A stretch of 64,000 bases of DNA from a phage. Shown one piece after another: positions 55,801 through 57,059 of this stretch (position 1 is the stretch's first letter; every line of letters starts with the position of its first letter). The notes under the pieces were generated by a model. It made no database searches. It saw only the letters and a program-made list of their open reading frames with translations, and was not told where the DNA came from. The position numbers and the translations under genes are program-made. The stretch is from the sequence record PQ724394.1; one strand, 5' to 3'.

Positions 55801-55822
55801 ATGGGACTCCGAAGAGTCCCAT
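55801..55822 (-). terminator. UUCG hairpin terminator
   Basis: Plus atgggactc-cgaa-gagtcccat; on minus followed by a T-rich run. Confidence 0.6.
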
Positions 55823-55825
55823 AAC

Positions 55826-55987
55826 TTATGCAATAACTTTACCGAAGCAAGCAGCATCTGCACGCAATACTGCACGAGCACGAGCTTGAAGCTTATCAAC
55901 TACCTGATTGATACGCTTGTTAGACGCACGCTTGTAACCAGCGCGTTTAGAGGTTCCGTCAACTACTTTAACTTCTTTCTTAGCCAT
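55826..55987 (-). CDS. candidate small basic protein (53 aa), not in the ORF track
   Basis: ATG at 55987; translation MAKKEVKVVDGTSKRAGYKRASNKRINQVVDKLQARARAVLRADAACFGKVIA; followed by a terminator hairpin. Confidence 0.35.
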   Translation of the reverse strand: MAKKEVKVVDGTSKRAGYKRASNKRINQVVDKLQARARAVLRADAACFGKVIA

Positions 55988-56340
55988 TTTTAAATCTCTT
56001 AAATTAGGATGCAGGACTTATTGGCATTGCCTGCGCAAGCCCTCAAGGGGAACATAGGTTTTAGATATTTAACGACAGGATAACCGTAAACCTCGTCATC
56101 ATAGCTCTTATCTGTTGCACACCGTTAGCTTAAAGGTTCCGGGTTCGATTTCTCGAGGATAAGATATATACTGATGGATATATAGGCCTTGAGGCGTACT
56201 CCCGATTGGCCATCACCTCGGGGTAGCATGCACTTGCCGCTATAAAATAACATTCAAGAGGTACACCGTAAAACTGCCGGGGTCTTAAAACTATAATGAT
56301 TCGCAAATCATTAATCAGACAGTTCGACGGCTCCTCGATT

Positions 56341-56589
56341 TTACTTCAGGGTAATAATAAAATGACGTACTGCTTTACGAGCTGCTGAAGCCAAAGGCTT
56401 AGCATATTTCAGTTCATCTTTTGCTTCCAATTCAGCGGCCAGAGTAGCCTGAGCAGGATTAAGATGTTTGAAATAACGCAGGATTTCCAGTGCTTCGGCT
56501 TCAACATCAATAGATGCGCCGTAGTTTTCGTGACCGTTGTTCCAAGCGTTGCGTTGCAGTTCAAGAGCGTGATTCAGATGTTTGTTCAT
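56341..56589 (-). CDS. rIII: rIII lysis inhibition accessory protein
   Basis: Internal ATG at 56589 gives 82 aa (MNKHLNHALELQRNAWNNGHENYGASIDVEAEALEILRYF...), matching T4 rIII in length and sequence. Confidence 0.8.
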   Translation of the reverse strand: MNKHLNHALELQRNAWNNGHENYGASIDVEAEALEILRYFKHLNPAQATLAAELEAKDELKYAKPLASAARKAVRHFIITLK

Positions 56590-56727
56590 TTTAAATTCTC
56601 GATTCGAGATAAAGATTGGTGGACACGTTCTTCTGAATTTCACTTCCTTTCGGCAAGTCTCTCAGTTGTAGTCCACCGCTTAGGATTCTCCGGTTAACTA
56701 ACTAGTCCGGCAGCCAATCCATATTAT

Positions 56728-56735
56728 TATTTATA
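56728..56735 (-). promoter_or_regulatory. late promoter (TATAAATA on minus) upstream of rIII
   Basis: Plus TATTTATA immediately after the gene 31 stop; about 140 nt upstream of the rIII ATG, leader contains inverted repeat ggtggac/gtccacc. Confidence 0.45.
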
Positions 56736-57059
56736 TCACTTATAAAGACACGGAATAGCTTTATAGTGGCAGGTAACGAATTTCTGTTTAATTTCTTTAG
56801 GCTGTTTAATACCAAGCGCAACTAAAGGATGAGGCACGTTAGCAATCTTACCAACAGGAAGTGGAGTCAAATCACCTACTTCACAAAAACCTTCAGGGAC
56901 ATCAGGCCCTACAGAATAAATTTCGCAAAGTTCAGGGATTTCACCTTGATGAAGTTTGCCAATAACGATACCAGATGCAGTAGTTTCTTCATCACCAGCT
57001 TGTTTTGGTTCGGAAACGAGAATAACATATTCTCCGACCGCTTTAATAGGAAGTTCCAT
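56736..57059 (-). CDS. 31: co-chaperonin gp31 (GroES-like)
   Basis: 107 aa; [12 protein letters not shown]...[14 protein letters not shown]...[23 protein letters not shown] closely matches T4 gp31. Confidence 0.9.

Follow-up and report, generated by a model that had tools for sequence, protein, structure and literature searches.

What does the 353-bp gap between rIII and 30.9 of a T4-like phage encode, if not protein? The window analysed here, 64,000 nucleotides (nt) of sequence record PQ724394.1, came from a JS98-type Dhakavirus and was 99% identical across this locus to Esco_phi_B-01, MN04 and UP19. An earlier inspection of the letters alone (the sequence-only reading) had noted that the gap (positions 55988–56340) contained no open reading frame (ORF) of at least 60 codons, and had offered a structured non-coding RNA, a long regulated leader or the remnant of a lost mobile element as explanations. 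The lack of such an ORF was borne out, the longest ORFs inside the gap being 58, 42, 30 and 24 amino acids (aa). All genes around the gap, including both flanking ones, were on the − strand (gp31, rIII and 30.9, in Table 1). The gap resolved into three conserved non-coding modules, A, B and C, and the central one, B, carried a covarying fold that is the main subject of this report.

The repeats named by the sequence-only reading were all recovered by a repeat search of the gap. They were an inverted repeat of 8 nt with 100% complementarity, CCTCAAGG (56041–56048) and CCTTGAGG (56187–56194); CTTATC/GATAAG, which sat within inverted repeat I1 (56096–56112 and 56158–56174); the arms of an AT-rich hairpin (GATATATA at 56163–56170 and 56177–56184); and two copies of ACCGTAAA (56083–56093 and 56265–56275). 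One 8-mer repeat or 8-bp inverted repeat in 353 bp was estimated to lie near chance level (~1 expected), and the single-sequence folding energy was not significant on either strand (z = −1.16 on the − and 0.01 on the + strand). Evidence beyond chance level has accordingly to come from relatives. In these, the long-range pairing of CCTCAAGG with CCTTGAGG was not kept, CCUUAUGG facing an unchanged CCCCUUGAGG in L015 and KpnBM7. The two ACCGTAAA copies are at most a candidate functional motif: the second was the complement of a helix strand of module C, and the other fell in the loop of a proposed module A hairpin (read by eye from the sequences). CTTATC/GATAAG and the AT-rich hairpin turned out to be helices Pa and H2 of the module B structure.

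A blastn search with the gap alone matched ~1000 T4-like phage records, piecemeal and at 90–99% identity. By alignment of eight phages, module A was present in T4, T6, RB33, Lutter, JS98 and QL01, and module B in the window, JS98, Lutter (Tequatrovirus) and Mineola; module C was absent from RB33 and Mineola. Module B was absent from RB33 and from T4, whose rIII-downstream region the sequence-only reading had proposed for comparison. In Mineola, a Klebsiella Jiaodavirus, module B could be aligned whereas its flanks could not.

Distinct versions of B were gathered from GenBank phages, IMG/VR and metagenomes, including Dhakavirus, Tequatrovirus, Jiaodavirus, Karamvirus, Moonvirus and Marfavirus members, Serratia phages Muldoon and PS2, Edwardsiella phage PEi20, Escherichia phage EcS1, and Pseudotevenvirus JC221 and Kp_GWPR59. 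From 21 sequences RNAalifold predicted 36 pairs, 18 of them with compensatory double changes. On widening the alignment by 10 nt per side a closing helix, P0, emerged, with family variants that included UAAAC/GUUUA, ACAC/GUGU and AAUUGUAG/CUACGAUU. The full nested structure comprised 42 pairs, of which 24 had changes on both sides among 25 distinct sequences. Paired cells amounted to 96.4%, compared with 28–44% in controls whose partners were slid by 1–3 columns, and none of 500 column shuffles reached B on any of five measures. Double changes were found in five of the 11 pairs of H3, and many of these were clearly separate events (CCCGA/UCGGG replaced by CUCUA/UAGAG, CCCAA/UUGGG, CCUGA/UCAGG, CCGAU/AUCGG or CGGAU/AUCCG); five of the seven pairs of Pa also covaried. 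A covariance model built from the alignment detected exactly one copy in the window, at 165.8 bits.

The arms of the predicted structure were P0, the P1/H3 arm, H2 and the Pa arm (Table 1). Because P0, P1, H2 and Pa abut without linkers, B is predicted to form a four-way junction. P1 joined the H3 arm through a conserved internal loop, AAGNGCA/CGCCUCAAG; Pb bore an invariant 15-nt loop, GAACCUUUAAGCUAA, and the Pa arm an invariant junction, GCAACA. An H-type pseudoknot, GGYG/CGCC (columns 24–27 with 47–50 of alignment A1), was 92.9% paired and had some double changes; it was set aside as overlapping the far better supported H3 extension and kissing loop described next, and is a possible alternative conformer.

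In every member the six bases of the H3 apical loop could pair with six of the eight bases in the H2 loop. The loop pair occurred in six versions, each of 6 Watson–Crick bp (Table 1). An unbiased search recovered at least six contiguous Watson–Crick pairs at the same apical position in each type, and a shuffled H2 loop attained such pairing anywhere in the H3 region in 3–5% of trials. In a gap-free mini-alignment of H2 and H3, all six loop pairs changed on both sides and 100% of cells were paired; with its hairpins extracted by hand, this test is not fully independent. The covariation indicates a 6-bp kissing contact of the apical loops of H3 and H2, which may belong to the same molecule or to two.

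The strand was read from two features. Paired cells of B included 65 G·U but 4 A·C, and the H1 loop, when read on the − strand but not on the other, was of GNRA type (GAAA or GUAA) in 20 of the 25 sequences aligned, among them all E. coli and Klebsiella copies but three. Both features identify the transcribed − strand as the one that folds. As judged from the alignments, B is very probably an RNA structure under selection on this strand.

This fold matched no known family. With Rfam 15 there was no gathering-score match in the 64-kb window, and the Rfam/Infernal scan proposed by the sequence-only reading found no family overlapping 55988–56340 at E ≤ 10; ARAGORN predicted 0 tRNA or tmRNA genes in the window. 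A + strand segment, GGTTCCGGGTTCGATTTC, considered as a tRNA T-arm was rejected in view of the empty ARAGORN result, the segment being the variable H1 hairpin of the other strand, to which the T-arm-like GGTTCGAT (+ strand) also belongs. Homology to T4 rnaC (139 nt) or rnaD was rejected as well, since the B covariance model, run with filters off, had no match at either; its best match in the 8-kb tRNA/rnaC/rnaD stretch of T4 scored 11.1 bits and lay elsewhere on the opposite strand. No B-like sequence was detected in 5,426 E. coli genomes or 72,556 plasmids, and a pattern scan of 185,579 GTDB genomes gave one chance match only; a bacterial origin was rejected on the strength of these searches. 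Neither topic nor sequence searches of the literature turned up a description of B, the supplement of a 10,000-motif viral RNA survey (PMC10690425) lying outside their coverage. The family thus appears to be undescribed.

Module B was found in 407 phage records, with hosts across Enterobacterales, and in 10 of 29 IMG/VR rIII loci. Searches for more distant relatives, by pattern scans of IMG/VR and metagenomes and by running the model on the 29 rIII loci, returned enterobacterial T4-like phages only. The covariance model detected one copy per positive locus and none in T4, T6, QL01 or RB33. B was 85–100% identical to seven of the eight genera compared (EcS1, at 73%, was the exception), compared with 70–86% for rIII, 30.9 and gp31 in the same comparisons, and was the most conserved segment of its locus.

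The setting of B differed among genera. The − strand order was rIII–(C)–B–A2–A1–30.9 in Dhaka-, Tequatro- and Karamvirus. In Jiaodavirus B lay between A1 and A2, with an A2-like segment on the rIII side and A1 directly after B. In Moonvirus P0 started 2–5 nt after the rIII stop codon, and in Pseudotevenvirus B occupied the convergent uvsW.1/uvsY.-2 gap with nothing downstream on its strand. In phages lacking B the deletion ended at or within a few nt of P0; the segment missing from T4 comprised everything from one P0 strand to the other and about four further bases towards rIII. The idea of a mobile element remnant, as originally worded, was not upheld, for B was intact, its structure was under selection and it had no conserved terminal repeats. 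Hallmarks of a miniature inverted-repeat transposable element (MITE) or DNA transposon were looked for and not found: P0 changed its sequence with compensation in every lineage, and there was no target-site duplication at the borders of B. B was nonetheless cassette-like, with presence or absence among close relatives and three insertion points. These comparisons argue for a self-contained, relocatable unit.

Gene order further indicates that B is co-transcribed with its upstream gene in at least some genera. A promoter of its own directly upstream of B was considered and rejected: the A/T-rich, −10-like flank proved to be the 5′ strand of P0, and the Moonvirus spacing left no room for one. 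A co-varying partnership of B with the 30.9 protein was rejected too, as no 30.9 homologue was found near the Pseudotevenvirus copies and T4 has 30.9 without B.

The same gap carries a second kind of RNA in sister phages. ToxI is the 36-nt antitoxin repeat of a Pectobacterium type III toxin–antitoxin system, AGGUGAUUUGCUACCUUUAAGUGCAGCUAGAAAUUC (PMC8610362). The Pectobacterium phage ΦTE carries a ToxI mimic, and ToxN binding requires C27 and U28 (PMC3475682). T4 is restricted by a ToxIN homologue of E. coli, and GAAAU is the ToxN cleavage motif (PMC10853763). The Jiaodavirus sequence just 5′ of B, GGUGAUUUGCUACC-AAAGUGCAGCUAGAAA, was almost a ToxI repeat, and a near-complete ToxI unit abutted P0 in >160 Klebsiella T4-like phages. 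In VR20/VR26-type phages AGGUGAUUCGCUACCUUAAGUGCGGCUAGAAAAUC directly followed the rIII stop codon; this unit shared three changes with the ΦTE pseudo-ToxI (the U9C/A25G compensatory pair, UUU shortened to UU, and an additional A at the 3′ end) and, unlike the latter, kept C27 and U28. T4, T6 and Lutter had a degenerate unit retaining three pseudoknot pairs, C9–G25, A10–U24 and C11–G23 (p = 0.014). A ToxI dimer query matched 200 phage records, including N4-, T5- and FelixO1-like phages, and bona fide ToxI-like units occurred in the gap of Jiaoda-, Marfa- and Gaprivervirus-type phages. In the window the unit was cleanly deleted, the sequence running GAAGUAA-AAUCGAGG. Since such units recur in sister phages, the rIII–30.9 gap is a place for RNA mimics of a defence antitoxin.

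An unrelated ~45-bp filler (ACCAACCACGACTTAGACAGATAACC...; L006 ~634–700 and L007 ~602–660) was seen in place of B in T6 and QL01. Its similarity to ToxI was not significant (p = 0.2), and it may be an alternative cassette at the same site.

We propose that the gap consists of conserved RNA modules in series, which would be transcribed together with rIII on the − strand. Module B would be an autonomous folded non-coding RNA of ~145 nt, its ends joined by P0 at a linker-free four-way junction, with the apical loops of H3 and H2 kissing and with a Pa arm that bears both a hairpin capped by a GNRA loop and a helix whose 15-nt loop is invariant. It would be released from the 3′ untranslated region of rIII as an accessory RNA and work in trans through its shape, binding a protein or a small ligand, most plausibly in host takeover or counter-defence. 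A trans-acting, shape-based mode is thought most likely because the same fold was found in three genomic settings, one of them without a downstream gene, and host takeover or counter-defence is suggested because the same gap in sister phages carries ToxI-antitoxin mimics. The autonomy, cassette-like spread, high conservation and neighbourhood of B thus favour a trans-acting accessory RNA, possibly one of counter-defence. We favour this explanation as a whole but tentatively, at somewhat less than an even chance, and the accessory or counter-defence role taken by itself is put forward as possible rather than probable.

Several observations weigh against this proposal. The B sequences are related and the diversity of the family is low, so that some of the covariation reflects shared descent and the counts of changed pairs overstate the number of independent events; the single-sequence folding energy of B was, moreover, no better than that of shuffles. 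The P1 pairs were invariant in all sequences, and covariation neither supports nor contradicts that helix; the proposed tertiary contacts other than the kissing loop likewise rest on invariant bases. No base-pairing targets for the invariant single-stranded motifs of B were found in the window. In Moonvirus and Karamvirus there was no room for a separate promoter, and B must therefore be part of the rIII mRNA; given co-transcription, a cis role in stability, processing or coupling to 30.9 is possible. T4, T2 and T6 manage without B, which is thus dispensable, and its likeness to ToxI was weak and inconsistent across relatives.

The main rival of the trans-acting proposal is that B is a cis-acting mRNA element of the rIII–30.9 transcript, such as a nuclease barrier or stabilizer, a processing site or a riboswitch-like regulator of 30.9. 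B was always directly downstream of a − strand gene, mostly rIII and, in Pseudotevenvirus, a small uvsY-cluster ORF; with P0 only 2–5 nt past the rIII stop codon, B must be co-transcribed in Moonvirus. Modules C and A beside it are conserved as well, each with a predicted RNA structure, and a P0-closed junction with invariant unpaired bases recalls a riboswitch aptamer. There was, however, no conserved downstream gene or expression platform and no Rfam riboswitch match: the spacer from B to 30.9 was 77–157 nt of unrelated sequence, and in GWPR59 nothing follows on the strand of B. A plain hairpin would suffice as an exonuclease block, and T4 expresses rIII and 30.9 without B. We consider a cis role unlikely on balance, though one to be taken seriously. 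The ToxI-like neighbours raise the further idea that B is itself a folded single-copy derivative of a ToxI-type (type III) RNA antitoxin that sequesters ToxN-family endoribonucleases. Measured against dinucleotide shuffles by alignment to permuted ToxI, the 5′ block of B (AAGUGCA-U-GCUACC...AGGUGAU) aligned with ToxI 19–36 then 1–7 (p = 0.002) and the 3′ block (ACCUUUAAG-CUA-GGUG-UGCAAC) with repeated ToxI 13–50 (p = 0.02–0.03), but these blocks were chosen after inspecting the sequences, and the window copy of B as a whole gave p = 0.08–0.09. In several divergent members the similarity was not significant (5′ block, p = 0.9 in JC221 and 0.6 in EcS1; 3′ block, p = 0.2 in Muldoon and 0.14 in GWPR59). 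The CUA aligned to the essential C27/U28 was invariant in the 3′ block only, and the GAAAU shown by the H1 loop in most members was missing from the Pseudotevenvirus copies and some others. Although a near-complete unit abuts P0 in the Klebsiella phages and T4 is restricted by the E. coli ToxIN homologue, B is not a tandem repeat array (Tandem Repeats Finder reported nothing at score ≥ 30 in 55900–56450). Descent of B from ToxI is accordingly offered as a rather unlikely hypothesis, not as a finding.

B might also be a self-cleaving ribozyme that processes the polycistronic transcript: several helices meet in it at a compact junction with invariant bases, it has a kissing loop and a GNRA loop, it lies between two cistrons, and in size it is comparable to the VS and hairpin ribozymes. 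Against that, no Rfam ribozyme model matched even at E ≤ 10 and no conserved candidate cleavage site was identified, and we regard a ribozyme as improbable. Presence/absence polymorphism, sharp borders, several insertion points and similar 11-mers flanking B (ACCGTAAACCT and ACCGTAAAACT) would suit an element acting as DNA (a MITE-like remnant, a PeSL-type recombination cassette or a DNA hairpin site), and T4-type phages are known to shuffle cassettes (PMC2839356, PMC4122927). This is more improbable still: the terminal inverted repeat, P0, covaries rather than being conserved and no target-site duplication was found; the G·U excess over A·C, the GNRA loops and the covarying loop–loop pairing point to RNA; and modules A and C were unrepeated in the window and failed the strict T4 early-promoter pattern. 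Least credible, and very nearly discounted, is a small protein. The window ORFs of 42 and 58 aa overlap B on the − strand, and GenBank records leave B blank or label it a hypothetical protein, as in many records with such features over B (e.g. the 49-aa CPT_Mineola_216). Conserved short coding frames across relatives, which the sequence-only reading had named as a finding that would refute it, were nevertheless looked for and not found: all six frames had stops in nearly all members and only one member had one open frame. The window ORF and that of JC221 read the invariant segment in different frames, the lengths of B (136–148 nt) differed by amounts that are not multiples of three and so shift the frame, and the substitutions in helices were compensatory. 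CPT_Mineola_216 (L004 1204–1353) lies over B, as do ORFs in many other records, and in some records the rIII–30.9 gap bears a '1,4-alpha-glucan branching enzyme' label; because no reading frame is conserved, all of these are very likely annotation artefacts.

Module B was compared with known RNA systems. Like the ΦTE pseudo-ToxI, it is a phage-borne, ORF-free RNA in an intergenic gap, and ToxI-like units lie in this same gap of its sister phages while two blocks of B resemble ToxI. It differs in being ~145 nt long, non-repetitive and present as one copy, with a four-way junction rather than an array of 36-nt pseudoknots; the similarity is weak and not family-wide, and the window has lost the stand-alone unit. 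The prohead RNA (pRNA) of phi29 is another phage non-coding RNA with two complementary loops that covary across relatives, and in pRNA these loops turned out to pair between molecules, which builds a ring. No resemblance of pRNA to B was seen in sequence or secondary structure; B is dispensable, being absent from T4, and T4-type packaging needs no RNA. The aptamers of purine and lysine riboswitches share with B a helix that closes the structure, a junction of several helices whose unpaired bases are invariant, and a loop–loop contact of neighbouring arms, whereas B lacks an Rfam riboswitch match, a conserved downstream gene and an expression platform, and in one lineage has no downstream gene at all. 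T4 rnaC and rnaD (species 1 and 2) are stable T-even RNAs of unassigned role and of similar size, and B may be stable too; they are located in the tRNA cluster, the B model finds no match at their positions, and T4 is without B. Like the PeSL cassettes (promoter plus stem-loop) of T4-type phages (Arbiol 2010; Comeau 2014), B is tied to insertion, deletion and replacement in a variable region, but A, B and C were unrepeated in the window and had no TTTACW-N17-TAYWAT, and B would be a large covarying fold rather than a promoter plus hairpin.

Few viruses have been studied as thoroughly as the T4-type phages, which also see wide use in phage therapy work, yet the B RNA was unannotated or mis-annotated as a hypothetical protein in >400 genomes. 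Its fold is comparatively clear in comparative support, with a loop–loop interaction rewritten six times, and for annotation practice ORF calls over the segment should be removed. The occurrence of ToxI-like units in many T4-like phages and in N4-, T5- and FelixO1-like phages suggests that antitoxin RNA mimicry may be far commoner than the single ΦTE example. Were B indeed a counter-defence or host-takeover RNA, it would add an RNA-only player to a protein-dominated field and would help to explain differences in host range between similar phages with and without it, such as Lutter and T4. More speculatively, and in our view unlikely, B might found a new class of phage accessory RNA: a single-copy, cassette-borne, folded RNA that neutralizes a host defence protein, with a ToxN-type endoribonuclease as the lead candidate target and ToxI-derived blocks set on a four-way-junction scaffold. 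Dimers or rings might then form via the covarying loops, and the gap would be an 'RNA anti-defence island' holding pseudo-ToxI units, B and C in varied combinations.

The proposal of a structured non-coding RNA thus stood for module B, the middle 145 nt of the gap; for the 80 nt nearest rIII, in module C, its support was weaker. Module C, common to T4, T6 and Lutter, was predicted to fold into a branched hairpin that begins 5 nt past the rIII stop codon. Five of its 25 consensus pairs had double changes, three pairs were G·U on the − strand (two of them in 20 of 20 sequences, one in 16), and its minimum free energy gave a z-score of −2.68, reached by one of 200 shuffles. These data give moderate support to a covarying RNA structure, and only moderate because sequence variation was low.

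The proposal of a long regulated leader is possible for the 30.9-proximal module A and does not explain B, which in Pseudotevenvirus is also found where the uvsY operon ends and is there followed by no gene. Module A was ~95% conserved from Dhakavirus to Tequatrovirus, compared with 73–85% identity of the flanking genes, and its proposed hairpins preceded the 30.9 ribosome-binding site. One compensatory change, A–U to U–A, was read by eye in the stem of hairpin 1 in Karamvirus EcL8g; the fold of module A alone was not significant (z = −0.23). A segment of it, GGUUAUCC...CGUUAAAUAUC...AAACC, turned up again in Karamvirus and also in Jiaodavirus, there across from its usual side of B; module A may serve as a regulatory site or as an RNA structure.

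No further copy of module A or C was found in the window. T4-type, −35-like TTTACG motifs occurred on the − strand in both, and within the gap neither the strict T4 early-promoter pattern TTTACW-N17-TAYWAT nor a sigma-70 scan gave a promoter. The ACCGTAAA copies were considered as −35 boxes of early promoters or as PeSLs and rejected, there being no acceptable −10 or spacing and the modules not being repeated.

Table 1. Coordinates of features at the rIII–30.9 locus (window positions) and of ToxI-like units in other loci (positions in the locus named)
Feature	Position	Strand	Remarks
gp31	56736–57059	−	
rIII, 82 aa	56341–56589	−	Gene upstream of the gap; matches annotated rIII of JS98 and MN04
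Module C	56245–56340	−	Alignment of eight phages; branched hairpin at 56258–56336
Module C hairpin	56294–56313	−	UAAUGAUU-UGCG-AAUCAUUA
Module B	56100–56244	−	~145-nt predicted structured non-coding RNA; alignment, RNAalifold, covariance model
P0, closing helix	56239–56244 / 56100–56105	−	UAUAGC/GCUAUG; 6 of 6 pairs change on both sides
P1	56236–56238 / 56185–56187	−	GGC/GCC; RNAalifold; closes H3 arm (56185..56238)
H3 arm	56197–56228	−	UGCU/AGUA + CCCGA/UCGGG + GG/CC; apical loop UGAUGG 56210–56215
H2	56165–56184	−	6-bp AU-rich hairpin UAUAUA/UAUAUA, 8-nt loop; loop bases CCAUCA 56172–56177
Kissing pair, versions 1–3 (H3 loop/H2 loop)			UGAUGG/CCAUCA; CGAUGG/CCAUCG; CUAUGG/CCAUAG
Kissing pair, versions 4–6 (H3 loop/H2 loop)			UGUAUU/AAUACA; UGCAUU/AAUGCA; CAAUGA/UCAUUG
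Pa arm	56106–56164	−	UCUUAUC 56158–56164 / GAUAAGA 56106–56112; encloses H1 and Pb
H1	56145–56156	−	UCGA-GAAA-UCGA, GAAA loop 56149–56152; 3 of 3 pairs covary
Pb	56140–56144 / 56119–56124	−	ACCCG/CGG-U-GU; 2 of 5 pairs covary (C–G to U–A in GWPR59, L052)
Module A	55988–56099	−	Alignment of eight phages
Module A hairpin 1	56072–56099	−	GAC(G)AGG-UUUACGGUUAU-CCUGUC; proposed; first ACCGTAAA copy in loop
Module A hairpin 2	56040–56049	−	CCCUUGAGGG; stem read from sequence
Module A hairpin 3	56011–56034	−	GCAGG..CCUGC; stem read from sequence
30.9, 53 aa	55826–55987	−	Gene downstream of the gap
Terminator-like hairpin	55801–55822		UUCG loop; after 30.9
ToxI-like unit	L069 and L070, 2255–2293	+	
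ToxI-like unit	L004, 1341–1370	−	
ToxI-like unit	L073, 2334–2364	+	
ToxI-like unit	L003, ~808–835	−	

A further ORF-free stretch, of 146 bp, was seen between gp31 and rIII (56590–56735). In the Yersinia phage JC221 (L010 1105–1938) ~830 bp around B, from uvsW.1 to the uvsY cluster, had no convincing ORF and may hold further non-coding elements. The annotated start of 30.9 in T4 (L003 415–633) lay ~42 nt upstream of the start used in Lutter, and the resulting extension overlaps the conserved hairpins of module A; the shorter start looks more likely.

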